From: a virus
Virus genome (UHGV): UHGV-0039337
Length of the DNA: 64,000 nucleotides
Strand: one strand, 5' to 3'
Position 1 is the stretch's first letter. Every line of letters begins with the position of its first letter. Both the position numbers and the translations under genes were made by a program. Positions 933 to 24,600 of this stretch are shown piece by piece. The notes beneath the pieces were generated by a model. The model made no database searches. It saw nothing but the letters and a program-made list of their open reading frames with translations, and had not been told where the DNA came from.

Positions 933-947
933 GGAAGGAGAGACAAA

Positions 948-3590: not shown

Positions 3591-6500
3591 ATGCCAATTA
3601 AGAAAAAAATAAATGGTAGATGGGTCAATGTTACTGGTTCATCTACCAGTACTAATAATACTAAAGCAATCAATATTGGTATCACAGATTCATTAGGATT
3701 TTATGATACTGACAATGTGGAAGGCGCATTAGCAGAAATAGGTAATGATTTAAAAAATACTAATGCTAATATAGAAAAGGTAGCAGCAGAGCTCAAAGAC
3801 CATAAACAAAATCATCCAGGTGGAAGTGGCAGTAGTGGAGGAGCTACCTTACCTACAATAACTTCTGATTTTAAAACAACAACTTCAGATGGCAAATCGA
3901 ATATAGAAATTCCTATATTTTTTACTTCTCCTTCTTTAGGTGATGGTACTGCATATATTCTTGTTAAGAATGTAGAAATAGCTACACAACAAATACAACA
4001 AGGAAATAACACTATTATTGTGCCACCTATTGGAGCTGGTAAAAATATAAATATATCATTATATGTTAAAGATAGAGCAGGACTTATTTCTAATCAATTA
4101 ACGTGGTTAATTACTGCTGGCGGTATTGAGATGACAATAATTACTGATACAAAGGCAGATTACGATATAAATAACAGAATAGTTATATCTTATACTATAA
4201 GCTGTATTTCTAACGAAGATATATATGCTCACTTTGAAATAGATGGAAAAGATAATCAAGTTAAATCTATTAACGGATACAATAGCTATCAGTTAACTGG
4301 ATTAACTGTAGGTGTTCATAAGATTTCCTACTGGGCAGAATCTGGTGATTATAAAACCACTAGTAAATCTTTTAACTTAATAATTGTAAATGAAGATACA
4401 TTAATAGTATCTACTGAATTTGATTCAGATAAAGAATATGAAAGCGGTATACCTATTAGCATACCTTACAGAGTTTCTATAACTAAAGACGAAGACTTTA
4501 CTGTTAAAATGTATATAGACGGTAATTTAGATAAAACTATAGTTACTAGACCTACAAGTTTATATTGGTCTATAACTTCATTAGATATTGGCAATCATAC
4601 ATTGAAAATAGAAGCTATTAATGATTCGTTAAATCTTAGCAACTCTATAGAATTTGCATGTCATGTTATTGAAGGTGAATATACTAGAGTGCAGCCTGTA
4701 ATGGATGCTTCTTTACTGTGCTGGTTTGATGCCACAGACAAAACTAATAATGATAGCGATAGAGATGTATGGACAGATAAAATATTAGGTAATAAGGGTT
4801 ATTTACATAATTTTAACTATGGTTCTAACGGATGGATAACAAACGATTCTACTCATACTTCTGAACTAGTAATGGATGGTACATGTTATGTTGAAATAGA
4901 CATGACACCTTTTAAAGATAATTTTAAAAACGGTGGTACTATAGAATTGGTATTTAAAGTTAGAGATGTTGGAAATGTTGATGCAAGAGTTTTAGATATA
5001 ACAGATACAATTTCTCCTTATAAAGGCATTTATATAGACACACGTGATGCATATTTAGCAACTGAAGCAAGAACGACAACTGCCTCTATAGGTGAAGATG
5101 AGTATATACATGTTATGTATGAAATAGATAGAACTAATAAATATGCACATGTAATAGTAAATGGAGTAATTACTGGTTCATGTAAACTTAGTGATAGTGG
5201 TATAGGTACATCTGCTGTATTAGAATCTATAGCGCATACTCAAAAGATTTATCTTAATAGTCAAAAAGGCACAGATTTATTTGGTTCATGTGAAATTAAA
5301 CATTTTAGAATATATGATAGAGCATTAAGTTTTGATGAAATACTACAAAACTATTTATCTACTATTGAAGACATAAAAGTTCAAAAATCTAAAGTTGATT
5401 TTAATGATCCACTTAAGAATATAATGCCAATAATGAATATAACATGCGATCCTGAACTATTTTCTATAATGACAGATGTTAATCAAATAGAAGTTGCTAT
5501 GACTTATACATCTCCTAATGCAGATTTGTATGGACAAACATTGACAACAGCTACTAAGTGTTTAATGTATTGGCAAGGTACGTCTTCAAAAGGTTATAAT
5601 ATACATAACTATAATTTATATCTAAGAGATGACAATAGACAACCTATAGCTTATAGTCCATATCCTAATTGTATTCCTCAATCATTATTTTGCTTAAAAG
5701 CAAATTTAATGGAATCTACAAATGCTCATAACGTAGGTCTTGCAGGCTATGTTAGAAAATATTTATATACTCATAATAATCCGGCGCAAGATGCAGATCC
5801 ACGTGCATCTAGAGTTATTCAGGGATTTCCTTTCTTGTTATATATAAATGGTGAATTAGCTGGCGTATATGATTTTAATTTAGATAGATATTCGTACACA
5901 GCATTTGGCTATGATTTACCAGCTCATAAAAATAAATGCAAAGTATATGAAATATCTGCCAATACAAACAAAACTGCAGGAGCATTTATACCATGGAGTG
6001 CAGATACAGGAGTAGATGAATGGACATGGTATAAAAATGACTTTGGTGGTATATATCCAGAATCTATACAAAACTCTGTTAATGATGATTTTACTGAATT
6101 GAAAAACTTAATTAAGTTTGTACATGATTCAAATGATGAAAAATTTGTTACTGATTTTGAAACATATTTTGATAAAGAATCAGTTATCAGATATTACTTA
6201 TTTGTAATGGTTTTAGGCCTTGTTGACTCATTAGGTAAGAATGCTAAACTTGTTACTTATGATGGTGTCAAATGGTATTTTGAGTTTTATGATATGGATA
6301 CAGCCATGGGTCTAGATAATACTGGTGCAGTTAAATTTGATGTTGATATAGAAATGAGTATGGGCAAATTCAATACTGCAGAATCTACACTATGGGTAAG
6401 ATTAGATAGATTATTTCATGACGATATAGTTAATGAATATAACATGATGAGAAATCAAAACTTAACAGCTGAAAAAATATATGAGTGTATATTCACTGAC

Positions 6501-9500: not shown

Positions 9501-10040
9501 AATTTTAAATTCCCTAGCGCACTTGTAATGCATGAATACTATGGAACTGGAGTTACTTATTATAATATGTTCCAATATTGTGGTAGTTTATCTATAGTAA
9601 ATCTTAACATGTCTAAATTAGCAGATACTAATTCTAAAGCAGATTTTGGTAGCATGTTCTATGAAGATAAATATATTACAGAAATTCATGGATTAGATTT
9701 TGCTTATCTTAAAAAACCTATACGTAATTTTACTTCTAGTGGTCAAAGTCCTTACGATTGGCATGACACTTCTATTACATATGGTGGTACATATGAAAAC
9801 TTAACAACTTTAGATGTTACAGGTAAATTAACAACAAGCTATAACTTTAAAAATATTGCTACCATGGTTCATACTAAAGTTATTTTACGACACTTAGATA
9901 AAGTAACAAATGAAACATTAGGATTGACATATAATATAGTTGATGCCATAGATGATGAAAAAACAGAATCAGTAGATCAAGAATTAAAAGAATTAGCTAA
10001 TACAGCATTAAGCAATGGTTGGTCATTCATTATAGTATAA
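3591..10040 (+). CDS. 2149-aa multidomain giant protein: tandem Ig-like repeats, LamG (concanavalin-A-like lectin) domain, CotH-like domain and BspA-type leucine-rich repeat region
   Basis: RBS ttaggagttgatt. The LamG signature is the closing motif IKHFRIYDRALSFDEILQNY (~aa 570). The CotH-like motif YYLFVMVLGLVDSLGKNAKLVTYDGVKWYFEFYDMDTAMG (~aa 870-900) matches the CotH W..IPWDxD..G core. The BspA-type LRRs show repeated F.GC.sL..I..v.. units (FSGCSSLIKVG, FEGCNKLKKIG, FFGCYTLTAINF, FSGCTALKTITI, YSNCPSLTNVI, FQYCGSLSIVNL) from ~aa 1100-1950. Confidence 0.85.
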   Translation: MPIKKKINGRWVNVTGSSTSTNNTKAINIGITDSLGFYDTDNVEGALAEIGNDLKNTNANIEKVAAELKDHKQNHPGGSGSSGGATLPTITSDFKTTTSDGKSNIEIPIFFTSPSLGDGTAYILVKNVEIATQQIQQGNNTIIVPPIGAGKNINISLYVKDRAGLISNQLTWLITAGGIEMTIITDTKADYDINNRIVISYTISCISNEDIYAHFEIDGKDNQVKSINGYNSYQLTGLTVGVHKISYWAESGDYKTTSKSFNLIIVNEDTLIVSTEFDSDKEYESGIPISIPYRVSITKDEDFTVKMYIDGNLDKTIVTRPTSLYWSITSLDIGNHTLKIEAINDSLNLSNSIEFACHVIEGEYTRVQPVMDASLLCWFDATDKTNNDSDRDVWTDKILGNKGYLHNFNYGSNGWITNDSTHTSELVMDGTCYVEIDMTPFKDNFKNGGTIELVFKVRDVGNVDARVLDITDTISPYKGIYIDTRDAYLATEARTTTASIGEDEYIHVMYEIDRTNKYAHVIVNGVITGSCKLSDSGIGTSAVLESIAHTQKIYLNSQKGTDLFGSCEIKHFRIYDRALSFDEILQNYLSTIEDIKVQKSKVDFNDPLKNIMPIMNITCDPELFSIMTDVNQIEVAMTYTSPNADLYGQTLTTATKCLMYWQGTSSKGYNIHNYNLYLRDDNRQPIAYSPYPNCIPQSLFCLKANLMESTNAHNVGLAGYVRKYLYTHNNPAQDADPRASRVIQGFPFLLYINGELAGVYDFNLDRYSYTAFGYDLPAHKNKCKVYEISANTNKTAGAFIPWSADTGVDEWTWYKNDFGGIYPESIQNSVNDDFTELKNLIKFVHDSNDEKFVTDFETYFDKESVIRYYLFVMVLGLVDSLGKNAKLVTYDGVKWYFEFYDMDTAMGLDNTGAVKFDVDIEMSMGKFNTAESTLWVRLDRLFHDDIVNEYNMMRNQNLTAEKIYECIFTDQIDKIPESQYNLSTQKKYLDTGEYIMMSNGNRYYGLKRWIKDRILYCDTLFNYTPSISDFITIRSGITGEAYIDIETYSPMYLTVRWRNVIDGTADQKLKIGRNQKVRFQAEGLNIPSNKDQEIIIYGAKHIKSFGQLDGLIPMYLYLNNATKLTNVECPNDSELLVAEIANCSYLQKVDFSGCSSLGTLEKYQVLDVSGCNNLRYLNAYGTVLTSISTNQSGGNLVEMYVPKTLQTLSLQNQYSLKVIGIPGASTLESTKLYDLKQNASNISSFTLINCPLVERLTYASDFTVNSNFFDNFTNERRSAELNYLTYTKNEWKRLMYWGNGLANCYNINIENSCHNIPSMSFRGISNLQSLKLRAMPGLKTLMLGANCCGYRYNNDPTYESNKYDTVGEFDWDTLSIIDCPNIEEFRIHEMYPYNWNEGSSGNLTYFTFKPGTESINLAAKFPNLKIFECNCATQNIHQIILPQSLKTIMTCAWNNRHDEGFPNEVKIEQFNIDSIYFEGEHEESYTGIDLGNHALQNVCIIAPYASELIGVNITNTHVNPIFNDLKEADNENRPFVTPNGRIDVSKFKWKNISDWFAYIDFTKGKCEVITPTNWKTFLVGIQKASRMFYHCTNPDFTWEFAMEFFSKINTYSDLSYMYQYAQLADQADFDTAAVVMENKYNIGGYNYNIKPFLGTNLKFVKSFTLTACDGAYATFSGCSSLIKVGDCKFTGSRSSTWGISYLFNNCIALEEVGNITSYANKNSSSTIPMDNTFEGCNKLKKIGTLDISVSSMNCAYYDCSVLEDNGLSLPYMGNCVDVRNAFFGCYTLTAINFETLEKVIYADAFLRNCYGLLSIHLPSINRDHPLQEFSSAFSGCTALKTITIEGDTLPIGLRNMSYAYSNCPSLTNVIPVPSDFVNDVDMSGCCSRCSSLTDDAIYKEIPFRVVNTNYMYERCNSLISPTVNLLCDNVTSKQMFRYCENMTSLTVNYNGRLLRDTTFFAEYCNRLQTVNFKFPSALVMHEYYGTGVTYYNMFQYCGSLSIVNLNMSKLADTNSKADFGSMFYEDKYITEIHGLDFAYLKKPIRNFTSSGQSPYDWHDTSITYGGTYENLTTLDVTGKLTTSYNFKNIATMVHTKVILRHLDKVTNETLGLTYNIVDAIDDEKTESVDQELKELANTALSNGWSFIIV

Positions 10041-10324: not shown

Positions 10325-10330
10325 TATACA

Positions 10331-10357
10331 GGGCCGGATTAATTCCGGTCCTTTTAT
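10331..10357 (+). terminator. Rho-independent terminator
   Basis: gggccgga-ttaa-ttccggtcc forms an 8-bp stem with one G.U wobble, followed by ttttat. Confidence 0.75.
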
Positions 10358-10409
10358 ATGTATTTGTATTTTACGTAATTCTATTATAAATAATAATTTA
10401 AAGGAGGTC

Positions 10410-10535
10410 ATTACACCTACTAATAATTATAATCCAGCTACCAAGAAATATGTTGACGACAAATCAGTAATAATCGATACAGATTTAAATACTGCTATAG
10501 CTAATATATTTGGATCAGATTATTCTATCTTATAA
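10410..10535 (+). pseudogene. Decayed N-terminal fragment of a tail-fibre gene (no start codon)
   Basis: The open frame reads ITPTNNYNPATKKYVDDKSVIIDTDLNTAIANIFGSDYSIL*. ATKKYVDD matches ATKKYVDN in the 15229 fibre and the KAYVD fibre motif. It sits after an RBS-like aaaggaggtc but begins at ATT. Confidence 0.5.
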
Positions 10536-10544
10536 TAATATAAA

Positions 10545-10576
10545 TAGAGCCGTTTTATTCGGCTCTTTTTTATGTA
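10545..10576 (+). terminator. Rho-independent terminator
   Basis: agagccg-ttttatt-cggctct is a perfect 7-bp stem, followed by tttttat. Confidence 0.75.
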
Positions 10577-10798
10577 ATTTTATTATAGAGATTAAAGTCT
10601 AAAGGAGGTCGTATGAAATTGCTGCTAATGACGACATAATAAAATCGTTATTAGATATTTTGGGATAAAAGAGATGCAAATATAATAGGTGCATCTATCG
10701 TTATTCAATTTACAGAAGTTACTATTTAAACTACAGATATTGAAGTAACTTCTATGTTAGATAAAATATTTACATAAATAATAAAAAGGAGTGCTAAA

Positions 10799-12265
10799 AT
10801 GGCTAATACTAAATTAATAAATTGCGATCAACTTCAAATTTCATTACAGAAAGTTAAAGATTATGTAGATGGTAAGTTTGCAGTAGCTGATCATAATCAC
10901 AATAATGTTTATTATACGCAAACACAAATAAACAATAAAATAAATAATATTAATTCTGCAATAGGCGGTAAAGCTAATGCAACACATTCACATAAATCAA
11001 GTGATGTTACAACCATGGGAGGATATTCTAAACCAGATTCTACTGGTGCTATAGCTACTACTGATACTTTAAATGCTGCAATTGGTAAATTAGAAACAGC
11101 ATTAGATGGTAAATCTAGCTCTAGTCATAATCATAATGGGGTTTATTTACCTATAAATGGTACAGCAGCTAGCGCTACTAAATTAGCTACAGCTAGAACT
11201 ATAAATGGTATAGAATTTGACGGTACTAAAGCTATAACTATAACAGCTAACCCTAATGCTCATAATCAGGCTTCAAATACAATAAATGCAATGACAGGAT
11301 ATGCTATAGCTAAAGCTTCTGCAGCAATAGCTACTACAGATAGTTTAAATACTGCTATAGGAAAACTAGAATATGCAATAGGACAAAAACAAGCTAGTGG
11401 TTCTTATGCTTCAGCCAATCATAATCATGATAACAGATATTATACAGAAACAGAAATAAATACTAAAATATCTGATTTACAAACTGCTGATACAAATAAT
11501 TTAGCTAATGCTAAAGCATATACTGATGCTGCTATTGATAAAATAACCGGAGAAGGCGTATCGGAAGCTCTTGATACATTAAAAGAATTAGGAGATGCAT
11601 TAAATAACGATGCTAATTTTGCAAGTACTATGACTACTGCATTAGCTGGTAAAGCAGATTCAAACCATATCCATGATGTTGCTACAACTACTACTGATGG
11701 ATTTATGTCATCTGATATGGTAACTAAATTAAATGGCATAGCTAATAATGCTAACAATTATGTGCATCCAACTACTGTTGGTAATAAACATATTCCTGCT
11801 GGTGGAGCTACAGGACAATTTTTAGGTTATTCAGCTGCTGGCACTGCTCAATGGGTAGCTAATCCTAATACAGATAGCAAAGTAAATACTGCAGCAGATA
11901 CAACTAGTACTAAATTATATTTAACTGGTGCTACTGGAGCTACTACTGCTGGATTGAAATATAGTTCATCTATTTTCTTTAGTGCTAAAGATGGTACCAT
12001 AACTGCTTCAGGGTTTAATGGCAAAGCTACTAGTGCCGGTTCTGCCGATACTGCTTCTGCTTGTTCTGGTAATGCAGCATCTGCTAGTAAAGTAAATAGT
12101 TCATTAACTATACAATTTAATGGTGTTAATAATAAAACATTTAATGGTAGTTCAGCACAAACAGTTAATATAACTCCTGCTTCAATAGGAGCTGCTACAA
12201 CTGCCGATACTGCTAAAGCAACAGACAAAGAAGTAAGCGATATGCTAACTACTATTTTTGGATAA
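10799..12265 (+). CDS. Tail fibre protein (488 aa) with phage tail-fibre repeats containing HxH motifs
   Basis: Strong RBS aaaaggagtgct. The N-terminus MANTKLINCDQLQISLQKVKDYVDGK is shared with the next gene. It has repeated ~35-aa units with DHNHN, THSHK, SHNHNG, NHNHD, NHIHD and TINGIEFDGTKAITIT. Composition is Ala/Thr/Asn-rich, typical of fibre shafts. Confidence 0.85.
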   Translation: MANTKLINCDQLQISLQKVKDYVDGKFAVADHNHNNVYYTQTQINNKINNINSAIGGKANATHSHKSSDVTTMGGYSKPDSTGAIATTDTLNAAIGKLETALDGKSSSSHNHNGVYLPINGTAASATKLATARTINGIEFDGTKAITITANPNAHNQASNTINAMTGYAIAKASAAIATTDSLNTAIGKLEYAIGQKQASGSYASANHNHDNRYYTETEINTKISDLQTADTNNLANAKAYTDAAIDKITGEGVSEALDTLKELGDALNNDANFASTMTTALAGKADSNHIHDVATTTTDGFMSSDMVTKLNGIANNANNYVHPTTVGNKHIPAGGATGQFLGYSAAGTAQWVANPNTDSKVNTAADTTSTKLYLTGATGATTAGLKYSSSIFFSAKDGTITASGFNGKATSAGSADTASACSGNAASASKVNSSLTIQFNGVNNKTFNGSSAQTVNITPASIGAATTADTAKATDKEVSDMLTTIFG

Positions 12266-12320
12266 AATATTTTATTTATGAAGCGTATATTAAAATTATA
12301 AAAAAGAAAGGAGATATTAG

Positions 12321-14939
12321 ATGGCAAATAATAAAAATATTACATTTGATCAACTTCAAACTTCTCTTAAAAAAGTAAAATCAGCTATCGATGGTAAAGC
12401 AAATACCAGTCATGGAAACCATGTTCCTACTACTGGTACAACCGATAACGCTACATATTTAAGAAATGATAATTCATGGCATAAAATAGTGCCTTCAGAT
12501 ATAGGTGCAGCCCCTTCTGTTCATGGGACACATGTCACATATTCTACAACTGCTCCGTCAGCTCCTGGAACTGCTTCTGCAGGTACTGCTGATAATGTAT
12601 CAAGAGGAGATCACGTACATCCTCTTCAAACTACAATAAGCGGTAATGCCGGTAGTGCTACTAAACTTGCCAATGCTCGTAATTTAACTGTAGGAAATAC
12701 AAAAAAATCATTTAATGGTACAGCTGATGTATCATGGAGTTTAAATGAAATAGGAGCAGCTGCTTCTGGTCATACTCATAATTGTTTTGCAATTAAAGGC
12801 GAAAATACTATATCCGGTATTGCAAATGATACTACAGAAAAATGGAAAGATCATGGTAATTCTGTACACTGGTATACAAAAGCAAATCAAATAACAGGTC
12901 AGCCTTCTCCATATGGTTTCCTTACTAACTGGGCTTCAGGTGGAGACGTTCATCAATTATGGATGACACAAAGTTCTGGAAACATGTTTCATAGAGGTGG
13001 TAATAATGATGGATGGTATGGTACTTGGAGAACAATATTAGATGAAAATAATTTTACTGCTTATTCTCCTACGTTAAGTGGTGGAGGAGCAATGGGTATA
13101 TGGGCAATTAGCGTTACTGGTAACGCAGGTACAGCTACTAAACTTGAAGAATCAAAAACTATAAATGGAACTAGTTTTGATGGTTCTAGTAATATAACTA
13201 CTGCTAATTGGGGTACTGCTAGAACTATTACTATAGGAAATAAAAGCAAATCAGTTAACGGTTCTGCAAATGTATCATGGACATTAGATGAAATAGGTGC
13301 TTTTCCGTTAACTGGTGGTATGTTGAGTAGTGGAGTAGGTATTGTAAATACTTATGGCGAAGCATGGTTTGATATTGGAGCCAATGATACATATGTATAT
13401 AATAAAAATAGCAATAAATCATTACAATTAAAGCATACTGGTGAATTAGTTTATGACGAAACATTTATTTTAGCTAATGAAGACGAAGGCGGTAAAATAA
13501 CTATAAAATCTACTGCTAATAATAATAATACAACAAATTATGGTGTTGGCGGTAGTGATATATATATAGATAACGTTAAAACAGGTAAAGCTTTGCAATT
13601 AAAAAATGACGGAACATTAAGATATAATGATAATATAATTTTAGATTCTAGCAACTATTCTTCTTATACTACTAGAAGATGTTGCGTAGTAGGACAAACA
13701 GGAAACTCTACAAGTAAACCTTATTATCTATTTGCTTATATAATTGCAAATGGATCTAACATGGATAGAGAAATAACATTTAAAGTAAGCACAGGATATG
13801 ATAATATTAAAGCTTCTGGTATATTAAGAGCACATTTAAGAACTAATTCAAATAATTATGTACAGAATGCACAATTATATTGGGAATATGCTAATACTGG
13901 TATAGAAGAAAGTAATTTTATCTTAGCATATGGTACAGGAGTGAATCCTACAGTTGAATTATGGGTTAAATGTGATGTAGCTTGGATGATGTATCATTTT
14001 GAAGTAATACAAGAAATTGCAAGAGACGAACATTATTTAGATCCTAAATGGATGTTGCAAACTTGTTGTCAAGAAGGTTATGCTGATTCTCCTACTAGTG
14101 GATATACTCAAGTGCCTAGTACAATTTTACAATTAAAAAATAGTGCACAATATGCATCAGCACTAAATGATGTTCAATATGCATCAGCATTGGATAATGC
14201 TCAATATACATCAACATTAGATAATGATATACAAATAGAAATAAATCCTTCATCAGGTAATGATAATGTTGAATTAGCAGATGGTGCAGTATATAAAACA
14301 ATTGCAGGAGTACTAGATGCATTACCTAAATTTTTAAACGGTAAACGAGTAAATATCTGGATGCGTGCTGATATAACTGAAAATGCAGACTTTCAAAATT
14401 ATACTAGTGGACAAATAAAATTTTACCTAGATGGACACACATTATACGGATATATTAGAAACTATATGAGTAGTGTTAAAGTGACTGTATATGGTGGATG
14501 GCCAGGTACCGAAAAAGGACATGTTGGAATAATTCACCCACCTGTAGGATGCGCAGTTGCCGGAAGAACAGGTAGCTTTATTTCACAAGAAAACTCCTCA
14601 ATGGATGCTTATAGCGTAAAAATATATGGTAGTGATAATCTGAATTCTTCTGGAACTTCCAATACTGTTGGTGTTATAGGAGACTCGTTTGCTACAATCT
14701 ATACTGAAAATGTTCAGTTTGTAAATTGTGATATAGGATTTAGGGGAAGTACCGGTGCTAGAATACATGATGCGAATTCAAGCGGTGTATGTAGTCAATA
14801 TGGTTATCAAGTTACAAGCGGTGCTTTCATAACAATTGATAACGCTGCCCACTGCGGTGGCAAAACTGCAAATACTGACCAAACATTGCCAGGGCAAATA
14901 ATAGCACACGCTAGCGCTACATATGCAAGCGGTAATTAA
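12321..14939 (+). CDS. Tail fibre protein (872 aa) with a paralogous N-terminus, a different distal domain and HxH repeats
   Basis: RBS aaaggagatatt. The N-terminus is MANNKNITFDQLQTSLKKVKSAIDGK. It has GHTHN, GDHVHP and RTINGTSFDGSSNIT repeats. The C-terminal ~250 aa are Gly/Ser-rich and beta-helix-like. Confidence 0.85.
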   Translation: MANNKNITFDQLQTSLKKVKSAIDGKANTSHGNHVPTTGTTDNATYLRNDNSWHKIVPSDIGAAPSVHGTHVTYSTTAPSAPGTASAGTADNVSRGDHVHPLQTTISGNAGSATKLANARNLTVGNTKKSFNGTADVSWSLNEIGAAASGHTHNCFAIKGENTISGIANDTTEKWKDHGNSVHWYTKANQITGQPSPYGFLTNWASGGDVHQLWMTQSSGNMFHRGGNNDGWYGTWRTILDENNFTAYSPTLSGGGAMGIWAISVTGNAGTATKLEESKTINGTSFDGSSNITTANWGTARTITIGNKSKSVNGSANVSWTLDEIGAFPLTGGMLSSGVGIVNTYGEAWFDIGANDTYVYNKNSNKSLQLKHTGELVYDETFILANEDEGGKITIKSTANNNNTTNYGVGGSDIYIDNVKTGKALQLKNDGTLRYNDNIILDSSNYSSYTTRRCCVVGQTGNSTSKPYYLFAYIIANGSNMDREITFKVSTGYDNIKASGILRAHLRTNSNNYVQNAQLYWEYANTGIEESNFILAYGTGVNPTVELWVKCDVAWMMYHFEVIQEIARDEHYLDPKWMLQTCCQEGYADSPTSGYTQVPSTILQLKNSAQYASALNDVQYASALDNAQYTSTLDNDIQIEINPSSGNDNVELADGAVYKTIAGVLDALPKFLNGKRVNIWMRADITENADFQNYTSGQIKFYLDGHTLYGYIRNYMSSVKVTVYGGWPGTEKGHVGIIHPPVGCAVAGRTGSFISQENSSMDAYSVKIYGSDNLNSSGTSNTVGVIGDSFATIYTENVQFVNCDIGFRGSTGARIHDANSSGVCSQYGYQVTSGAFITIDNAAHCGGKTANTDQTLPGQIIAHASATYASGN
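14145..14225 (+). repeat. Three tandem 27-bp units encoding AQYASALND / VQYASALDN / AQYTSTLDN
   Basis: The units gcacaatatgcatcagcactaaatgat, gttcaatatgcatcagcattggataat and gctcaatatacatcaacattagataat sit head to tail inside the 12321 fibre gene. Confidence 0.8.
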
Positions 14940-15154
14940 ACGACCGATAGTACTTCAGCCTAATACTTATTGCGACTAAGATTACTATAATTAAATCTAA
15001 TAATGGTATTATAAAAGGAGTTTTAATATTCAATCTACCTATATAATGCAGCAAACTATGCAGTATATTCTGGTAGCTTAACAATGAAAATTACTTACAC
15101 AGAATAATGTTTAGTTAAATTAACTAAGCAAAGTAATAATATATATGAATGCAG

Positions 15155-15189
15155 TAATAGGATTAGTCAAATATTAGCTAGTCCTATTA
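15155..15189 (+). promoter_or_regulatory. 12-bp-stem palindrome/hairpin immediately upstream of the 15229 RBS
   Basis: taataggattag-(11 nt loop)-ctagtcctatta gives 12 pairs including one G.U, followed by a T-rich tract. It lies in a 289-bp non-coding gap, the largest in the fibre cassette. Confidence 0.55.
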
Positions 15190-15228
15190 TTATGTATATA
15201 TTATTTACAGAGAAAAGGAGAAATATAA

Positions 15229-15767
15229 TGGCAAATTTAACATTTCTAGAAGCATTAAATAAATCATTAATTGCTACTAAAAAATATGTTGATAACTCAG
15301 TAGCTGGAATAGTGGATTCAGCGCCAGAAACTTTAAATACTTTAAAAGAATTATCTACAGCTTTAGGAGATGATCCTAATTTTGCTACTACTGTTGCAAC
15401 TAATATAGGAAAAAAAGTAGATAAAATAGAAGGGAAAACATTAACAGCTAATGATTTAACAAATGAATTAAAAGCTAATTACGATGCTGCATATGCTCAT
15501 AGTCAAGTGGCACATGCTCCAGCTGATGCACAAAAAAATAGTGATATAACTAAAGATGAAATAGAAGCTAAATTAACTGGTGATATAAGTTCTCATACAC
15601 ATAGCCAGTATTTAACAGAACATCAAAATTTGGATGAATATGCTCCTAAGAAATATGTGGATGATAAAATGGCAAATTTAAGTATAGTAAAAATATCTAA
15701 AACTGATTTTGAAGCATTAACTACAAAAGATGCTAATACTTTATATTTAGTATTAGAAGATTCATAA
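15229..15767 (+). CDS. Short tail-fibre-like protein (179 aa) with the shared N-terminal anchor motif
   Basis: ATG at 15229 with RBS aaaaggagaaatata. The track start at 15192 reads through the RBS. The N-terminus MANLTFLEALNKSLIATKKYVDNSVAG carries the KKYVD motif. SHTHSQY is a fibre-repeat HxH motif. Confidence 0.8.
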
Positions 15768-15792
15768 AACCGAATTTAAAGGAGAGGTTTGA

Positions 15793-17295
15793 ATGGCAAC
15801 ATTAAAAATAAAACCGTCATCTTACACTACAAACAAATGGAAAAATATAGAAAAAATGTATGATAATGATACCAGTACATACGCATCATGCACTGTTAAC
15901 TTGACTACTAATGATCTATCATGTGATCTTCATATAACTAAACCTTCCCTACCCGATTATTACATTATTAATAACATAAAATTACATTTAGTAGCAAGAG
16001 GTAAAACAATGACAAATGATGGAGGTCATTGGCTTAGAATATATATAAATGAAACTAATCAAATATCAGATTTACATTTAGGATTTTGTGATGGTATTGA
16101 ATATGATATACCATTAACAATAGATCAATATAATCAAATGAATGAAAATAATAGTATGAAATTAACAGCACATAGGGCCAACTCTAGAACTAACATTAAT
16201 ATTTATATATTTGATTTTTATATTGAAATAGATTATACCGATTTAAGTCAAACTATGATAACTGATACAAACGACGATATTTGGATTTATAAAAATGGAA
16301 CAATTACTATAGATATTAATGCTTATCCTAAAACATTAATAAATTGGTCAGTTGATAATCCAAATATAATAGATTTACAACTTATATCCAATGGATTTTC
16401 ATGCAATATAACAGGTAAAGCTGTAGGAGAGTGTATTGTAACTGCAGTTCATTCAGAAAATAGTGAATGTAAAACTCAATTCAAGATTAATGTTAATAAA
16501 TTAATTGAAAATAATTATTGCTCTTTTATATTAAATAACGTTACTTTGAATCATATTATGATAGGGGAACAAAATGTTGCTTTTGTTTATCTTGGAAACA
16601 CTAAAGTATTTGAATATAAAACTCATATACCATACAGTGAGTTTAAATTTAACACTTTAACAAAAGACTTTACCATGCCTTTATACACTAGATTAACTTC
16701 TCAAACATATACAAAAGCATATATAGATCGTCTTGATGGACATATACGTAATTATGCTGCAGCTCCTCCTGGCGAACTTGAGGAAGACGATAGTTCAATA
16801 GCAACAGTAGATTATATACCAGTATATGATAATGAAGAAATAATATTTAATTATCCATCGACTGAATATGGTATAGGATTATGTAGCTATACTGGAATTC
16901 ATGAATATTATAAAACATGGTTTGGTCCTGATAAAGGTTGGGGTAATTACAATATGAGTGATTCTGGTGGAGACGTAACCGGTACTACAACGACATGTAT
17001 TATTCCTGAAGGAGCTAAATACATAAGATGGTGTGGCAACAATATGACTGGAGAACAAATATTTGCTAGACGATATAGCGTACAAAATATCGATTTAATA
17101 CCTTATCCTCCAAATAGTACATATACTTTTAATACAGAATATAAATCTAGCGATGAGTCTGTAGCTGTAATTGAAGGTTCAATGATACGTGCTAAATCTG
17201 CTGGTAATTGCATTATAACTGTTACGCATGGTCAAATTAGTACAAATATTAATTTAACTATAATAGATAATAGCAATGATTTCACAACATATTAA
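15793..17295 (+). CDS. 500-aa protein with two bacterial Ig-like (Big_2-type) domains
   Basis: RBS aaaggagaggtttga. The Big_2-like segments are WSVDNPNIIDLQ...GKAVGECIVTAVHSEN and YKSSDESVAVIEGSMIRAKSAGNCIITVTHGQ. Confidence 0.75.
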   Translation: MATLKIKPSSYTTNKWKNIEKMYDNDTSTYASCTVNLTTNDLSCDLHITKPSLPDYYIINNIKLHLVARGKTMTNDGGHWLRIYINETNQISDLHLGFCDGIEYDIPLTIDQYNQMNENNSMKLTAHRANSRTNINIYIFDFYIEIDYTDLSQTMITDTNDDIWIYKNGTITIDINAYPKTLINWSVDNPNIIDLQLISNGFSCNITGKAVGECIVTAVHSENSECKTQFKINVNKLIENNYCSFILNNVTLNHIMIGEQNVAFVYLGNTKVFEYKTHIPYSEFKFNTLTKDFTMPLYTRLTSQTYTKAYIDRLDGHIRNYAAAPPGELEEDDSSIATVDYIPVYDNEEIIFNYPSTEYGIGLCSYTGIHEYYKTWFGPDKGWGNYNMSDSGGDVTGTTTTCIIPEGAKYIRWCGNNMTGEQIFARRYSVQNIDLIPYPPNSTYTFNTEYKSSDESVAVIEGSMIRAKSAGNCIITVTHGQISTNINLTIIDNSNDFTTY

Positions 17296-17380
17296 TAAAA
17301 ATATAAAAATACAGTTATAAATAATATTTATTTGAAAATAATTAAAAGACAATGTTATGTCAGTTAAGTATTATATTTTA

Positions 17381-17420
17381 ATACACCTTCTTATAATTTA
17401 ATAGGGGGGTGTATTTTATT
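17381..17420 (+). terminator. Putative rho-independent terminator
   Basis: atacaccttc ... gggggtgtat is a 10-bp stem with two G.U pairs and a 14-nt loop, followed by ttttatt. Confidence 0.5.
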
Positions 17421-17520
17421 ATGATTTTTTACAATAATAATAAAGAAGAGGCAGAAAAAAATATGGAACAAGTTTATGAATTACTAGCAGAAATTTTAAT
17501 AGAAAGCGAGAGTGATAATA

Positions 17521-18906
17521 ATGAAAAATCAATTACTTAATATAGCTTATTTGCGTTGTAGTACAGATGACCAAGATGTAGCACATCAATTATCAAGTAT
17601 AGAAAAATTCTGCGAAAGTCAAAATATAGTTATAGACAAAGTAATTAAAGACGAAGGCGTAAGTGCTTATAGTAAAAGTGCATATGAAAGAAAAGGCTTT
17701 AGTGAAGTAATACATTTAGTAGAAGAAAACAAGGTTAATAAACTTATATTATTCGAATCTTCTAGATTATCTAGAAATTTTCATGAAGGACAAAATTTAA
17801 TTAAATTCTTTAGTGACAAAAGAGTGGAGATATATAGTGTAGTAGATGGTGGTATAATTAATGCTACTGAAGTAGATGAATTATTAAATAGTATTAGGTA
17901 TTGGCTTAATCAAAAAGCCAGTAAAGAAACAAGTGATAGAATTAAAAGTCAAAAAAAGTTAGCTAAATCCAAAGGAGAATTTCTGGGACATCCTGTTCCA
18001 CTAGGATTTAAAATAGAAAACAAGCATGAAATTATAGACGAAGATAAGCGTAATTTTATTATTGAATTATTTAATACTTATATTAATCAAAGTTCTAGAG
18101 CATGTATAGATTTATTAAAAACTATAGGAATCAAAGCTAATCATCAAACGCTATTGCAAAGGATAAAAAATGATAAATATATACAAATAGTAGGAAAAGA
18201 TACTTTTAACAAAGCCCAAGAAACCATACAATCTAGAAGATGTAATAAAGGAAATAATACCAGAACTTTAAACAGGAGTAATATTTTATATGAGGGTTTA
18301 TTATACCATCTATGTGGTAGCAAACTTACAATAGATAAAAATAGAAAAGGTGAACCTGTTTTTAGATGTAGAAGATGCAAACATAATTTAGATATAAATA
18401 TTAAAAAATCTTTTATTGGTAATCCTTTAATGAACAATATTAACAAAGATATGTATGAAATAATCAATAATTTAGATAGGAATAAATTAGAAGAGAAGTA
18501 TAAAGAACGTAATAACAAACAACGCTCAATAATATCTTACAAAATACACGAACTAAAAGCATCTATTAAAAGCAAGAAAAAATCTTATGCTTTAGCTAAT
18601 AATAAATTAGAAAAAATATTAATATCTGATATGGATGATTCACTTATATCTACTGTGGCTAATACTGTTAACAATATAAAAAAAGAGATAGAAGAATTAG
18701 AAAAGGAATTAAATATTGAGCAAGAAAAAATAGATACTATAGACGAACAAGCGAAATTTAATGCTGGTTTAATTAATAAAATAATCAACTTAAAAGATGT
18801 GTATATAAACGGAAGTGACAAGAAAAAGAAGGCTATACTTAACTTTATGATAGATAAAGTAATAGTTTATGACATTGATAAGTTTGATATTTTTTTAAAA
18901 ATATGA
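17521..18906 (+). CDS. Large serine recombinase (resolvase/invertase catalytic domain plus recombinase and zinc-ribbon C-terminal domains)
   Basis: N-terminal IAYLRCSTDDQ carries the catalytic Ser. RLSRN and the resolvase fold motifs are present. The C-terminus has the Cys cluster CGSKLT...FRCRRCKHN and a long coiled coil, typical of phiC31/TnpX-type large serine recombinases. ATG at 17521 is preferred over the track's GTG at 17512. Confidence 0.85.
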   Translation: MKNQLLNIAYLRCSTDDQDVAHQLSSIEKFCESQNIVIDKVIKDEGVSAYSKSAYERKGFSEVIHLVEENKVNKLILFESSRLSRNFHEGQNLIKFFSDKRVEIYSVVDGGIINATEVDELLNSIRYWLNQKASKETSDRIKSQKKLAKSKGEFLGHPVPLGFKIENKHEIIDEDKRNFIIELFNTYINQSSRACIDLLKTIGIKANHQTLLQRIKNDKYIQIVGKDTFNKAQETIQSRRCNKGNNTRTLNRSNILYEGLLYHLCGSKLTIDKNRKGEPVFRCRRCKHNLDINIKKSFIGNPLMNNINKDMYEIINNLDRNKLEEKYKERNNKQRSIISYKIHELKASIKSKKKSYALANNKLEKILISDMDDSLISTVANTVNNIKKEIEELEKELNIEQEKIDTIDEQAKFNAGLINKIINLKDVYINGSDKKKKAILNFMIDKVIVYDIDKFDIFLKI

Positions 18907-18984
18907 TGGTTGAGCATTATAATAGTTGTTGCATTTATTATACTTAACCACAAAGGTAATATTTTATAGAAAGGAGCTGATGCA

Positions 18985-20934
18985 ATGGCTAAAAAAGAGC
19001 AGTTTGATGCTTTACAAATAGTAAATGACAGTCTAAAACTTTATGTAAAAGAAAAAATAGCAGAAGCGAAAATATCAGGTGGAGATGTTGATCTTAGTAA
19101 TTATGTTACTAAAATTACAGGTAATGCTAGTCAAATTACTTTTAATGATGGTCAATCTTTTCAAGATAAATTAAATAATGGCACTTTAAAAGGTGATAAA
19201 GGAGACAAAGGTAATGATGGTGCAATTGGACCTCAAGGACCTGCTGGTGAAAAAGGTGACCAAGGTGAAGTAGGGCCTCAAGGACCTGCCGGAGAAAAAG
19301 GAGATACTGGCCCACAAGGACTAGCAGGTGTTGATGGTACACCTGGAGCTAAAGGTGATAAAGGTGAAATTGGAGAACAGGGACCAAAAGGAGATACTGG
19401 ACCTGCCGGTAAAGATGGAGCTGATGGATTAACTACAGCTGTATCTGTTAATGGTGTTACTTATAACCATATTAATGGAGTAATTACATTGCCTAACTAT
19501 CTTAGTCAAATATATAAAACTCCTAAATTTATTACAACAACTACTACTTCATACAAAGATTCGTCAGGTAATACAGGTTTTACAATAGATTTAGGTATTC
19601 CTACGACTTCTGTATTATCTATAGATAGTATAGTTGTTACTGCTAAATATCAAAATACTGATTTAAAAATAACTCATGTAAAATTAGAAAACAATTCAAC
19701 TAATTGGAATTTATTGGCAACAGTAGAGGGATATGATGCTAATCAAAAATATACTGTATCAGTAGCCATATTTAATTATGGAGAAGAATTAACTGTAGCG
19801 GAAGCATTAAATAAATTATTTGCTAAAGTTTATTTAGGTTCTATATCTCCCGCTGGCTCTGGTAGTGGAGAAACTACTACTGAAACATTAACTATAAGCA
19901 ATATAGCAAATATAACACAAAATATTAAAACATCATTCTATATAGAATATAGCACTAATATAGCGGTGACAAAACATGAAGTATCGTGGGATGGTGGAGA
20001 CACATTCTATGATAAAACTGGTGACGTTACTTCTATTGGTAATAATCATAAGTTTTTACATGACGATAAAGCAAATGCTGGAACATATAACATGGCTATA
20101 AGAGTTACAACTGCTAAAGGTACAACTAAGACAAGTAATATATTTACTGTTACTTTAGTAGATAATAGTGAAGATGAATATGCTATGTCTTGTACTTCTG
20201 AATATATTCTAGACAAGATGTATCCAATGCCACAAAACCATGAAGCAGTACCGAGTGGTGTTACTGATACATGGGCTACTCAATCTCGTTGGGAGAATCA
20301 ACAAAGACCTACTGCCGCAGCACATAACTGTGGTCAAGCGAATTGTCCAGGAGCAGTACAATTTAAAGCTTTAGGTGCTTGGGCTAATGTATATAGAGTA
20401 AAAGATTCAGGATTTAGTTCTAATACTGGAGTTGAAATGAGAAACATAAAAGTTTACGGATGGTATAATGGTCAATGGGAAAAAGTACAAGATATGGCTG
20501 TGCCTGATGGTAATTTTTACACTGAAAGTTTCTCTGGAGATAGTAATCAATACTTTAGTGACAGTATTAAAACTACAAGCACTAGTAAAACTATAATTTT
20601 AAGAGAAAAAAATAAGGTTAATGGTGAAAACTGCATGTACCACCCATTCTCAAAAATAAAGAATTTTGATGTAAAATATGAATATGTATATACTTGCATA
20701 GATTTACGTAAGGTCAAATGGGATGAAAGTGGAGTAGATGATAGAGATAGTTCTCATTACTGTGCAAGTTGTGGTGGTGACTGGTGGTTAGCTGAAGGGT
20801 TAACATTTGATAGTAGTTGGCAACATAACAAAGGTGTAGCCCAACCTAAGATAATAGAAATTACAAATAAGTGGAGAAGATTCTCTATGACTACTGTTCC
20901 ACAAGACTGGACAAGTGGGTTTCCCACCAAATAG
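18985..20934 (+). CDS. Collagen-like tail fibre protein (649 aa)
   Basis: RBS gaaaggagctgatgca. The N-terminal [16 protein letters not shown] anchor motif is present. About 78 aa are uninterrupted G-X-Y repeats. It is followed by an [13 protein letters not shown]...VSWDGG domain that is paralogous to a segment of the 21692 protein. Confidence 0.85.
19192..19427 (+). repeat. Collagen-like G-X-Y triplet repeat coding region
   Basis: [79 protein letters not shown]. Confidence 0.9.
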
Positions 20935-21685
20935 TGATAGTGAAAATGAAACTGTAACAGTTGATGCTCTAGAAATATTGCCTTCATTTACTTATGCTGA
21001 TATTCCAGAAGAAGGAACTAAAAATTTATATGTAAAATTATCTAGTAAACCAGATTCAGATATTATAGTAAATACTACTTCATCATCACAATATTTATCT
21101 TGTTCACCTTCTTCATTGACTTTTACAAATACAAATTGGAGCGTATCACAAAAAATAGCTATAAGCTCATTAAAAGATAATAATGAATCTGATGATACAT
21201 ATAATATAACATTGTCATCAAATGATTTATCTTCTAAAGTTTCAATAGAAGTTACTGATGCTTCTAATAGCAATTATGAAATGTTATATGATAATGGTGT
21301 ATTATCTCATGGTACTTTGACTTTAAACAATGCTACAAATTATGGAAGCTATATTACAATAACTCAAAACGAAAATTCTTCTGTTATGATAAGTGGTTAC
21401 CCTATATCATTAAATAAAAATGATAAGGTTTATTTACAGTTAGGATTAGACACATCAGACCCAGCTTCTACATATTCTATAAAAATAGGTCAACTTGGAG
21501 ACTCATCAGCTAATGACATAAGTAATAGTAATATGCTTACAGAGCAACAAATATCAAACGCATTAGATGGTGATAAAATATTAACATATTGGACTGTAGC
21601 AAATGCAGTATCAAATATTGATTTAACCATTACATCATATTATGCTAGAGTTAAAATTTATAAGATATATATTGAAAGGGGGTAG
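20915..21685 (+). CDS. 256-aa lectin-like module, possibly a +1-frame continuation of the 18985 product or an independent or pseudogenised ORF
   Basis: GTG start with no RBS, overlapping the last 20 nt of the upstream gene in the +1 frame. Its C-terminal domain ([17 protein letters not shown]...[15 protein letters not shown]) is paralogous to aa ~750-880 of the 21692 protein, where it is fused in a single polypeptide. Confidence 0.5.
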
Positions 21686-21691
21686 TAATTT

Positions 21692-24600
21692 ATGGCTAAT
21701 CAAATAATAAATTCAAAAAATTTAACTTCAAAAGAAATTCCAGAATTATATATAAGATATTTTAATTCAAAGGTAAAAATAAATACAGATATAACTATTC
21801 CTTATTATGTATCAGATAATACTCAAGCTGAATATCTAAATAATAGTAATGCTAAAAGTTTTACAACTATAGTTACATTTAATTCAAAAGTATTTTCCAG
21901 CACTACTACTGCTGGAGAATTTACTATTAATATAGGGTCTGTATCTACTGTAGGAGAAACTTATTTTAGTATTTATACTATAGATAACAATGGTGTTGCT
22001 AGCGCGGAACAATTTTTTGATATACTAATTATAGATGATACATATCCAATAACTCAAAGTCAAACTTACACTATGACTTCAGCAGATTTATCTACTTACA
22101 ATATAAAAGCTGGAGAGTCTGTATCTATAAGTGATGCTAAATTAAACGGAGCATCTTTAATAAGTTTATTTAAAGGAGTTAAAGATAAAGGTTATAGAAA
22201 AATTATAATGCTTAATAATATCTATATGCTAGATTACCATGGAAATAAAGTTATTCTTCCAGACCAATTTACTGTGGATATGAATGGGGCAACTTTTAAA
22301 GCTACACAATGTAATGATATAAATGTAGCTAATTTAGTAGATTTAAGAGATTGCTTTGATTCTCATGTAATAAACGGAAAACTAATTGGTAATTATGATG
22401 GATTTGATTTTGCGGCAACAAAAACTAATACTAATTATAACATACCTGGAGAAGGATTGGCTGTTGCTGAAATTAATGGTGCTAGATATTCTTCATTTGA
22501 AAATATGGATATGTCTTACTCAGTAGGGTATAACTTAGGAGTTTTCGGTGGAAAAAAATCAGGGTATGTTGGAACTCCAGGAAAATTAGCTTTTAAGAAT
22601 CAATACTATATTGATGCCAATGGAAATCAAGTAAATAGTTCAGATATGTGTACAACTGATATTATAGATATTTCTACTTTATTAGACAGAGGAGAGTTAC
22701 AATGTAGTGTATATTTAGGATATGGAGGATTATCATTAGATAAAGCAGAATTATTTATACATTTTTACGATAGCTCTCAAAAATATCTAAAAACTATAAA
22801 AACTAGACAATATCAAATAGTAAAGATTCCTGCAGGAGCAAATTATGTAAGAATAACTGGGTTTACTTCTGTAACTGAATCTTCTGGTTTAACTATATGT
22901 TGTACAGGACAAGCGACTAATTGTGAATTAATAAATATAAAATCTCATAATACCAGAACTTGTGCTATGCATCCAGGAATTTATAATCATCTGCTTATAA
23001 AAGATTGTACATTCAACAAAGTTGCAGATGAGAATGAATATAAAGTAACTAAATTAGCTTTAGACTTTGAAGATGGATATGAAAACGGAAGAAATTTATT
23101 CTTTATAAATAATGAAGTATATGATGGGACTTCAGCACTAACAGTTCAGAGATGTTTTAATTGTAATGTTATTAAGTGTAGAAATTTTGGATTAGACTTA
23201 AGAGGACATATAAAAGGAGCTTTAATTAAAAATAATTTCTTTAATGAAGGAAGCATATATACAACTAATTTTGATTCCCAATCTCATATGAAATTAGATA
23301 ATAATACATTCTTCAGATCTTTGAAATTTTTAAAATGGGATGATAAAGGAAATTACCCTACAGTAGGATTGACTAATTTAGACTGTAAACAAAATTATCA
23401 AAATAATTCTAATACTAATGTAGTAATAGATAATGCTGTTAATGGAAGTGGTAGTGGAGGAGCTCCATCTCAAACATATTATAATATTATAAATAATATA
23501 TCAAATTGTACTACTGATAATAGTGATAATTTAGTATTGAAAGATTCTTCATATAAAGCTACGATAACTCCAAAGAGTGGATATGATATAACTTCAATAA
23601 CTGTAACTATGGGTGGAGTTGATATAACTTCTACTGCATTATCTGGACATACGATAAATATAGAAAAAGTTACTGGAAATGTTAATATAAATGTAACTAC
23701 TAAAGAAATAGAAAGTTATAGAATAACAAATAATTTAACTAATTGTACAAATTCAAACACTACAAGTAGCATATTAAAGAATAAAAGTTATAGTGGTACT
23801 ATAGTATCTAATGAAGGATATGATTTATATAGTATAACAGTAACAATGGATGGAACCGATATAACTTCATCTTCTGTAAGTGGAAATTCTATAAATGTAT
23901 CTAGTGTAACCGGAGATATTATTATAACAGCTGTATGTACTACAGAAGTGACTGAGGTTATATATGACAACGGTACTCTAAATAAAGGTACATTTAAATT
24001 GAAGAATGCTACTGCTGAGAGTACTTATATCAGAATAAATCAAAATCAAGATTCTTCTGTTACTATAAATGATTATAAATTAACTTTGAATAAAAATGAT
24101 AAAGTTTATATGGATATAGGATTAGATACTGATAGTCCATCAAATGGATATTCTATAAGAATGCTTCAATTAGGAGATTCTTCAGTAAACAATTTTACAA
24201 ATACAAATATGATAAATGAATCTCAAATATCTACTGCTTTAAATGGTAAAGATAAAGTTACTATATATTGGACTATAGCAAACACAGTATCTAATATTGA
24301 TTTAACATTAACATCATATTTTGCTAGAGTTAAAATATTTAAAATTTGGATAGATAAAAATTCTACCGAATCTGGAGGTGGAGGAACCACTCCAGAAACA
24401 TTAACTATTAGTAATATATCCAACATGACACAACCTGCTCAAACAGAATTTTATATAGAATATACTACAAATATAGCTGTAGTAAAACATGAAGTGTCAT
24501 GGGACGGCGGTAACATGTTCTATGATAAAACTAGCGATGTAACTTCTAATGGAACATCATATAAATTTAAACATGATAATGCAGGAACTGCTGGAACATA

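Follow-up and report, generated by a model that had tools for sequence, protein, structure and literature searches.

Systems in which one phage carries several receptor-binding proteins (RBPs) are known from the Klebsiella phages KP32, the Menlow group and PhiK64-1/RaK2, and also from CBA120 and SP6/K1-5, where an anchor or branching domain is combined with N-terminal "conserved peptides" (PMC6872550). This conserved-peptide/branching system has been tested by experiment (PMC13352976). In monocin, an F-type tailocin of Listeria, several separate trimers are fastened to the side-fibre platform by short latches at their N-termini, and the distal tail protein grips the coiled-coil stem of the platform itself (PMC11830787). 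The present study concerns a comparable locus in the virus genome UHGV-0039337, of which a stretch of 64,000 nucleotides (hereafter, the window) was analysed. Positions 10410-20934 of the window, initially annotated from the sequence alone as a cassette of four or more alternative tail-fibre genes, make up most of an accessory tail-fibre island of about 16 kb (window 10325-26163), which is located between two conserved blocks of tail genes. The fibre genes are named below by their start positions (10799, 12321, 15228 and 18985; Table 1). Three of them share a predicted helical module at the N-terminus, by which fibres with mosaic distal ends would be docked to the tail.

The island is a multi-RBP locus in which the N-terminal adaptor is conserved, a familiar host-range route found here in a new group of phages. 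As in the Klebsiella-type systems, the receptor-binding genes are adjacent, a short conserved N-terminal peptide is followed by variable distal domains, truncated members are kept in place, and the number of genes is variable, with the largest sets in jumbo phages. Unlike those systems, the island belongs to a low-GC (Firmicutes-type) gut phage and encodes HxH and collagen fibres, not beta-helix depolymerase spikes, and a glycanase is found only in a protein of 1444 amino acids (aa). The conserved element is a predicted coiled-coil helix of 19 residues, and Pfam and PHROG scans revealed no gp10-like branching domain or primary anchor RBP. The locus resembles the monocin FtbN/FtbO/FtbP complex (PDB 9j1l) in that 10799 has the iron-binding HxH stalk of FtbO. 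Under the arrangement proposed below, it would also resemble monocin in having one platform and several trimers attached via short N-terminal elements. However, latching in monocin relies on beta-hairpins and not on a helix of the kind predicted here; its set of fibres does not vary as the island does, and the homology extends over only about 30 residues.

A variable island between conserved tail genes

The window demonstrates 100% identity to a metagenomic scaffold of 271,414 bp, and a scaffold of 269,929 bp from a different sample is 99.5% identical to it. Therefore, the window is part of the roughly 270-kb genome of a jumbo phage from the gut that has not been cultured. GC makes up about 29%, every gene in this part of the genome is located on the + strand, and very large proteins of the tail or receptor-binding type are encoded by about 50 kb of the window.

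Relatives sharing the genomic backbone were reached via the recombinase encoded in the island, the 494-aa tail protein to the right of it and the homologues of 12321. In all these relatives, the left border of the variable locus is formed by the gene of a giant CotH/LRR protein followed by a gene of about 90 aa, and the right border by a gene of about 177 aa followed by the gene of a tail protein of about 494 aa. Homologues of the left-flank gene are located directly after the giant protein in L110 (55% identity), L112 (67%) and L089 (N-terminal 47 aa). The right-flank gene, which is 62-80% identical in L070, L072, L088, L089, L110 and L112, is always found immediately 3' of the variable locus.

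Between these borders, the number of genes in the relatives ranges from 0 to 9. The locus is empty in L089, contains one 948-aa fibre in L088 (where the contig is truncated), and comprises five genes in L110 and nine in L112, about six of which carry the N-terminal motif. At least seven genes plus the recombinase were found in L070 and at least three plus the recombinase in L072, and in the window the variable locus takes up about 16 kb. The left part of the island is syntenic with that of L110 and L112, which contains in turn a mini-fibre, a 500-aa paralogue, an orthologue of 10799 (66% identity in both) and an N-terminal orthologue of 12321; the right part is unlike in each genome. The initial annotation had assumed that cassettes are gained and lost at this place, and the comparison of synteny, in which fibre number varies among the relatives from an empty locus upwards, bears this out.

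Phages L059 and L066 were also considered as backbone relatives and were rejected, since they have only receptor-binding modules in common with the window. L085-L087 are distant relatives only, with another fibre N-terminus and without the recombinase.

The N-terminal module of the fibres

One and the same short motif had been described at the beginning of four genes, placed at 10799, 12321, 15229 and 18985, and in a decayed fragment at 10410. All four genes are intact open reading frames (ORFs) on the + strand with AAAGGAG ribosome-binding sites, the third of them beginning at 15228 and not at 15229. In pairwise alignments of the N-termini, only 10799 and 12321 are clearly similar (score 82, with a shuffle maximum of 40, p<0.0005). 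An independent hidden Markov model (HMM), trained solely on five fibre N-termini of the relative L070, was then compared with all 358 six-frame segments of the window. Its top three matches were the starts of 10799 (expectation value, E, 2.8e-5), 15228 (7e-3) and 12321 (1.4e-2), each aligned from Met1. Besides, a leave-one-out profile recovered 15228 (E 4.6e-4) and missed 18985, which came at rank 43 with E 27. Thus, the motif is real for three genes and unsupported for 18985, which seems to share only a generic heptad-like pattern. In the fragment at 10410, the N-terminal profile matched the K-x-Y-V-D portion only (E 0.016-0.2).

The motif is also found in other phages. Among the 120 best database homologues of 12321, the sequence MAN[NS]KNITF[DN]QL stands at residue 1 in 60 and at an internal position in none. 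The motif-bearing homologues are 508-1497 aa long, and the best local alignment covers only 11-41% of 12321. Between orthologues with differing distal parts, the motif is 66% identical, and L070 and L112 each encode five or six further motif-bearing genes.

In 10799, 12321 and 15228, the module comprises about 25 residues, namely an 8-residue tail and a subsequent amphipathic helix of 19 residues. The AlphaFold2 (AF2) model of 12321, based on 28 sequences, predicts a helix at residues 9-27 with a predicted local distance difference test (pLDDT) score of about 91 over residues 11-20. As read from the sequence, F9, L12, L16, V19 and I23 of this protein are placed at a/d heptad spacing. Judging by the sequences and the model, the motif is a genuine helical module, specific to the N-terminus, in these three genes.

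Proposed arrangement of the fibres

We consider it reasonably probable that the island encodes co-expressed accessory fibres with a common N-terminal docking helix and mosaic distal ends. The helix would form a short trimeric coiled-coil stem, and each fibre would dock via this stem onto a common adaptor on a baseplate or platform protein. With a docking stem in common, fibres could be added or swapped individually: any stem-bearing fibre might be inserted or replaced, leaving the rest of the tail unchanged. The genes of the island are all co-oriented, and each has its own start codon and ribosome-binding site, except ORF 20915, which is without the latter. Terminator-like hairpins occur only at 10330 (10330-10352), 10546, 17380 and 26121 (26121-26143), and none of them separates the genes from 10799 to 17295. 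With such a layout, the island fibres are probably co-expressed, and the virion would display several fibres at once, being multivalent and not switchable.

Several points weigh against this arrangement. We infer both the presence of the fibres in the virion and the docking role of the helix. The AF2 model is that of a monomer, with a predicted template modelling score (pTM) of 0.23. Pfam and PHROG scans of the neighbouring proteins revealed neither an adaptor nor a T4 gp10-like branching domain, and no profile-profile or fold search against T4 gp10 was made. Several members of the set are visibly decaying, including three gene remnants termed ghosts, the truncated 12321 and the remnant 20915, and not every intact ORF of the island need be functional. 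Besides, K-x-Y-V-D is found again within the fibres, at residues 238-247 of 10799 and in the tip at the C-terminus of 15228, and the equivalent segment is internal in the solved fibres 6v8i (80alpha FibU) and 9d93 (gp4). Therefore, part of the similarity is generic fibre sequence.

The adjacent proteins might instead be assembled serially, as segments of one composite fibre in which the helix joins the C-terminus of the previous protein in the style of T4 gp34-gp37. T4 genes 34-37 are likewise adjacent fibre genes with HxH metal-binding motifs, and the island genes are adjacent and co-oriented. There are also connector-like short members (179 aa; 67-68 aa in L110 and L112) that carry both the N-terminal motif and a C-terminal peptide, ..TD.EV..ML..IF(G), with which 10799, its paralogues and all three ghosts end as well. 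However, the T4 proteins are obligatory serial segments of a conserved set, whereas the island contains from 0 to 9 genes. The whole set is missing in L089, and other relatives have five or nine genes; therefore, the members are individually dispensable, unlike obligatory fibre segments. In addition, 12321 and its homologues have distinct distal domains of their own, and serial assembly is regarded as unlikely.

It is still less probable that the similarity of the N-termini arose by chance, as the heptad pattern of any trimeric fibre encoded in AT-rich DNA. The recurrence of K-x-Y-V-D within the fibres is in line with such an explanation, as is the failure of the leave-one-out profile to find 18985. 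The N-terminal pairs other than 10799 and 12321 score 21-34, which is within the background, unrelated N-termini of the window scoring up to 30. Generic similarity is nevertheless refuted for 10799, 12321 and 15228, the starts of which were ranked first among all frames by the independent profile. The strictly N-terminal position of the motif in the 60 homologues and its conservation between orthologues with unlike distal parts also contradict it. For 18985, the explanation by chance stands.

Fibre shafts and distal domains

According to the initial annotation, the genes diverge completely after the motif, which is an overstatement. A stretch of about 300 aa in the shaft is paralogous between 10799 and 12321 (26% identity, E 3e-10). 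Residues 234-287 of 10799 are 41% identical to residues 13-65 of 15228, and the DSAPETL unit is common to these two proteins. The HxH-repeat shaft was found as described, with five HxH motifs in 10799; there are two in 12321 and one in 15228. Protein 10799 has PHROG tail-fibre matches, and its residues 286-313 match residues 63-90 of monocin FtbO, including His67 and His69 of the iron-binding stalk (E 1.8e-4). The collagen-like shaft was also recovered, in 18985 (Pfam Collagen, E 5.4e-15). The Big_2 domains gave only a sub-threshold signal (E 0.037; 14.4 bits, the cut-off being 22.8), and this signal is sited in a separate gene without the motif (15793-17295), where HL_N-beta also scored below the cut-off (E 0.0011). 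In L072, a homologue of the 15793 protein (28% identity over 150 aa) likewise follows a short Phage_tail_C fibre.

The short protein 15228 matches Pfam PF24243 (Phage_tail_C, E 3.6e-8) and the PDB entries 9d93 (tail collar fibre gp4, E 2e-13) and 6v8i (upper fibre FibU gp68 of Staphylococcus phage 80alpha, E 1e-7). Residues 9-97 of 15228 share with FibU and the collar fibre gp4 the K-x-Y-x-D element and the coiled-coil unit DSAPETL(D/N)TL(K/N)EL, and the C-terminal ..NTLYL tip is also alike. In both solved fibres the unit is internal, being placed behind an N-terminal domain of about 190-260 residues, whereas in 15228 it extends from residue 9. The 5' region of gene 15228 is 76% identical to that of the gene of a 482-aa fibre in L112.

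In 12321, a 27-nt tandem repeat (14138-14226) separates the shaft from the distal domain and encodes the 9-aa unit N-[SD]-[AV]-Q-Y-[AT]-S-[AT]-L. The C-terminal domain of this protein, the putative beta-helix-like end of the initial annotation, was modelled by AF2 with a pLDDT of 30 from only 5 sequences. No enzymatic or depolymerase distal domains were detected in the motif-bearing genes, and GH16 was found only in the 1444-aa protein, which is without the motif.

The fibres of the 10799 type, the mini-fibres of 67-68 aa and all three ghosts end in a conserved C-terminal peptide, ..(A/T)TD.E(V/I)..ML..(I/V)F(G/T). It is located at 12220-12265 in gene 10799 and at 10476-10778 in the ghosts, and is present in the relatives L088, L110 and L112. 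This peptide could be a chaperone-binding or joining element.

Decay and mosaicism of the fibre genes

Three ghosts were identified upstream of gene 10799. Ghost 1, which corresponds to the fragment at 10410, is followed by a duplicated terminator unit (10537-10592), and both units match L112 6557-6628. The exact origin of ghost 1 is uncertain. Its interpretation as a pure relic of a C-terminal tip was dropped, since both K-x-Y-V-D and the C-terminal peptide are present in the mini-fibres (67-68 aa) of L110 and L112. Ghost 2 demonstrates 72% identity to L112 6818-6878, where the intact L112 gene 6653-6859 ends (E 7e-5). Ghost 3 is 73% identical to L112 8288-8380, with which the intact gene 6878-8380 terminates (E 2e-11), and can also be aligned to the end of gene 10799.

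Gene 12321 shows signs of both exchange and loss. Its C-terminal 256 aa (residues 617-872) are 74% identical to receptor-binding proteins of the loci L001-L025, and these donors of the C-terminus belong to unrelated phage contigs of 34-69 kb. The 3' end of the donor gene is kept as a relic at 15004-15106, which is 80.6% identical to L003 11176-11274 (E 1.8e-21); therefore, about 145 C-terminal codons of 12321 were deleted. Longer alleles, P0048 and P0049 (1050 and 1096 aa), extend past residue 872. On these comparisons, 12321 is a truncated chimera, and the genes of the island decay by internal deletion and swap distal domains with unrelated phages. The remnants that map to intact genes of relatives, the truncated chimera and ORF 20915 make the gain and loss of cassettes a well-supported claim.

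The right half of the island

By sequence comparison, genes 18985, 20915 and 21692 represent a separate module family with collagen, Ig-like modules and GH16, common with L059, L066 and L061. The C-terminal 250 aa of 18985 demonstrate 89-91% identity to the ends of the 2035-2123-aa proteins of L059 and L066, and an Ig-like module is common to 18985 and 21692. The picture of four equivalent fibres cannot be kept, since 18985 belongs to a different module family and its N-terminal similarity is not significant.

The product of 21692 is mosaic with L059, L066, L061 and L003. It contains a GH16 (laminarinase-like) domain at residues 1129-1350, which matches GH16 endo-beta-1,3-glucanases in PDB (E 4e-18). 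The repeated Ig-like modules of this 1444-aa protein recur in 18985 and in other phages, and these modules probably serve as recombination substrates.

ORF 20915 overlaps the end of 18985 in the +1 frame, and there is no ribosome-binding site upstream of it. Residues 615-857 of an L059 protein of 858 aa align with its product at 56-58% identity, and L066 and L061 provide like matches. ORF 20915 is the 3' third of a gene of the 858-aa type, the intact form of which is found in L059; a recombination scar is the probable explanation, although the ORF may be translated by frameshifting.

The 7.2-kb block 18985-26163 is bounded by a 10-bp repeat, GGTAATATTT, which is present at only two places in the window, 18955 and 26164. 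The repeat belongs to a duplicated leader of about 35 bp, the right copy of which occupies 26164-26200. In L070, L072, L088, L089, L090, L110 and L112, there is one GGTAATATTT leader copy each, upstream of the 177-aa gene. The GGTAATATTT pair was considered as an attachment (att) core or a target-site duplication produced by recombinase-mediated insertion. This was rejected because the leader occurs once in every relative and the palindrome adjoining the recombinase shows no disruption. The arrangement points to an origin of the 7.2-kb block by duplication or homologous recombination rather than by site-specific insertion. The genes 18985, 20915 and 21692 would be transcribed from the duplicated leader of the tail operon.

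Serine recombinase and candidate attachment site

A gene encoding a large serine recombinase (17521-18906), absent from the initial annotation, is located inside the interval 10410-20934. The protein, the catalytic domain of which is intact, matches Pfam Resolvase (PF00239, E 1.6e-22) and PHROG integrase (E 4e-47). Among 17 homologues, neither the catalytic residues R12, S14, R82 and R85 nor the cysteines of the putative zinc ribbon vary; C265, C283 and C286 are conserved, and a K/E-rich helical region is visible in the alignment. PF07508 scored only in the distant homologues P0041, P0043 and P0044, and not in the recombinase of the window. Homologues with 38-51% identity were found just downstream of tail/endolysin genes in phage contigs of 23-77 kb, and the position immediately downstream of these genes is the usual location of the integrase in small phages.

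Similar elements accompany the homologues. An ORF of 36-40 aa overlaps the start of the recombinase homologue in L072, L074/L075 and L076/L077. An inverted repeat is located at the recombinase stop codon in L074 (12/12), L073 (10/10), L070 (9/10), L076/L077 (inner 10/12) and the window (8/10); it was recognised by eye in L072 and was not found in L078, and the sequences of the arms differ among the relatives. The palindrome at 18905-18952 is single in the 64-kb window, with the next-best match equal to the shuffle maximum. A scan of genome contigs found no attB or integrated copy, and returned only a contig of a Cellulosilyticum metagenome-assembled genome (MAG) with a 34% identical homologue. 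This contig (L078, 30.6 kb, Cellulosilyticum sp.) is the sole relative of the recombinase in the reference-genome collection, and its binning with Cellulosilyticum gives a weak hint of a Lachnospiraceae-type host.

The recombinase, the small ORF and the palindrome are best read as an integrase-type module, which is carried as island cargo in a subset of the relatives and is not a fibre switch. It hints that the jumbo clade may be temperate, or that the integration module was captured from small phages.

It is very doubtful that the recombinase and the att site actively recruit foreign receptor-binding genes in an integron-like manner, or else make the 270-kb phage temperate. Such capture would agree with the start of the foreign 7.2-kb block 12 bp past the candidate att site and with the position of the recombinase at the right edge of the variable genes in L070 and L072. 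However, the palindrome is intact to the left of the block, and the junction is not at the palindrome centre. The 10-bp repeat on either side of the block belongs to the leader with its ribosome-binding site, which stands upstream of the 177-aa gene in every relative. No att-like repeats were found at other gene boundaries of the island, which have leader or ribosome-binding-site homology and deletion scars instead, and the islands of L110 and L112 vary without any recombinase.

A recombinase-driven switch, inverting, deleting or shuffling fibre segments with one fibre expressed at a time as in Mu (Gin, G segment), P1 (Cin, C segment) and the R64 shufflon, is largely refuted and retains hardly any probability: here too a site-specific recombinase gene stands amid tail-fibre genes, three related genomes show its linkage to the variable locus, and there are weaker PHROG "DNA invertase" matches, but the enzyme is a 461-aa protein with a putative zinc ribbon and a long coiled coil and not an invertase of about 190 aa or a tyrosine recombinase of the Rci type, its homologues occupy the integrase position in small phages, only one candidate site exists in 64 kb, and inverted repeats that are long or well matched are absent from the fibre region (best 39 nt at 77%), as are gene segments on the opposite strand, all ORFs being +. 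Moreover, L110 and L112 possess large fibre sets without the recombinase, and the order and orientation of the genes are identical in both strain contigs that cover the whole of 10410-20934. With co-oriented genes that have their own ribosome-binding sites and no second site, the suggestion of a switchable module is not upheld.

Gene content, strains and neighbouring genes

The features of the island and its flanks are listed in Table 1.

Table 1. Position and character of the features in the tail-fibre island and at its borders (window coordinates).
Feature	Position	Strand	Remarks
Left-flank gene, 90 aa	10052..10324	+	After the 2149-aa CotH/LRR giant protein
Non-coding stretch	10325-10798		With gene relics
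Ghost 1	10410..10537	+	Start-less fibre remnant (..PATKKYVDDK..LNTAIANIFG.., then stop); intact ribosome-binding site ahead
Ghost 2	10627..10687	+	3' end of a deleted 68-aa mini-fibre gene
Ghost 3	10685..10777	+	3' end of a deleted 500-aa 10799 paralogue (..TTDIEVTSMLDKIFT, then stop)
Gene 10799 (fibre A), 488 aa	10799..12265	+	N-terminal helix motif, then HxH stalk
Gene 12321 (fibre B), 872 aa	12321..14939	+	N-terminal helix motif, fibre-A-like shaft, foreign and truncated C-terminal domain
Spacer, 289 bp	14940-15227		
Relic of donor receptor-binding gene	15004..15106	+	Last ~100 nt of the gene
Gene 15228 (fibre C), 179 aa	15228..15767	+	N-terminal helix motif, DSAPETLNTLKEL unit, one HxH, Phage_tail_C tip
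Gene 15793, 500 aa	15793..17295	+	Without motif; partner of fibre C
Terminator-like hairpin	17380-17415		Conserved
Small ORF, 39 aa	17421-17540	+	Overlaps recombinase start
Large serine recombinase, 461 aa	17521..18906	+	
Candidate attP	18905..18952		Imperfect palindrome of ~48 bp; begins at recombinase stop codon
Left copy of 5' leader of the 177-aa gene	18955..18984	+	GGTAATATTT..AAAGGAG; precedes gene 18985
Gene 18985, collagen-like fibre, 649 aa	18985..20934	+	
ORF 20915, remnant, 256 aa	20915..21685	+	GTG start
Gene 21692, receptor-binding-type protein, 1444 aa	21692..26026	+	GH16 domain; last island gene
Right-flank tail gene, ~170 aa	26201..26713	+	Likely start 26201; 494-aa tail protein next

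Within 10410-20934, the sole difference between the strains is one copy of the 27-nt repeat, the 99.5% identical strain L054 having one extra. Single-base differences between the window and the strains L054/L056 are nearly all concentrated in two clusters outside the fibre island (window 500-3500 and 6000-7000), which affect a metallophosphatase-like protein of 873 aa (948-3569) and a single portion of the 2149-aa giant protein. Between the window and these strains, the fibre island is invariant.

The 2149-aa protein (window 3591-10040) demonstrates CotH, laminin-G-like and BspA-type LRR signals, and its residues 26-1282 are 29% identical to gp353 of Bacillus phage G. In L112, the orthologous gene is interrupted by a NUMOD3 homing-endonuclease gene. 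In L089, where the island is empty, the flank gene of about 90 aa takes the form of a 193-aa fusion (1951-2532), the C-terminal 150 aa of which are similar to the window gene 31138-31881 (37% identity).

A megablast search of the region against GenBank phages gave a single match of 716 nt, in an unannotated fragment. Scans of the viral contig collection for the recombinase and for the C-terminus of the giant protein returned no relatives, and in 9.5-27 kb the 27-nt repeat was the only feature brought up by Rfam, tRNA and tandem-repeat scans.

Implications for host range and lifestyle

To our knowledge, hardly any gut jumbo phages have been cultured, and neither their hosts nor their adsorption machinery are known. 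The island between conserved flanks, with its 0-9 fibre genes, is a defined place where the evolution of host range can be compared between strains. The N-terminal helix of 25 residues, present in at least 60 database fibres with differing distal ends, is a candidate plug for RBP engineering in Firmicutes-type hosts, and the Klebsiella "conserved peptides" are already employed as such plugs. Current concepts of the evolution of phage host range are unchanged by these findings. If the recombinase did recruit RBP genes, the island would be a host-range capture system and not a passive recombination hotspot. As for the phage lifestyle, the integrase module inside the island points to a possible capacity for lysogeny in some members of the jumbo clade.

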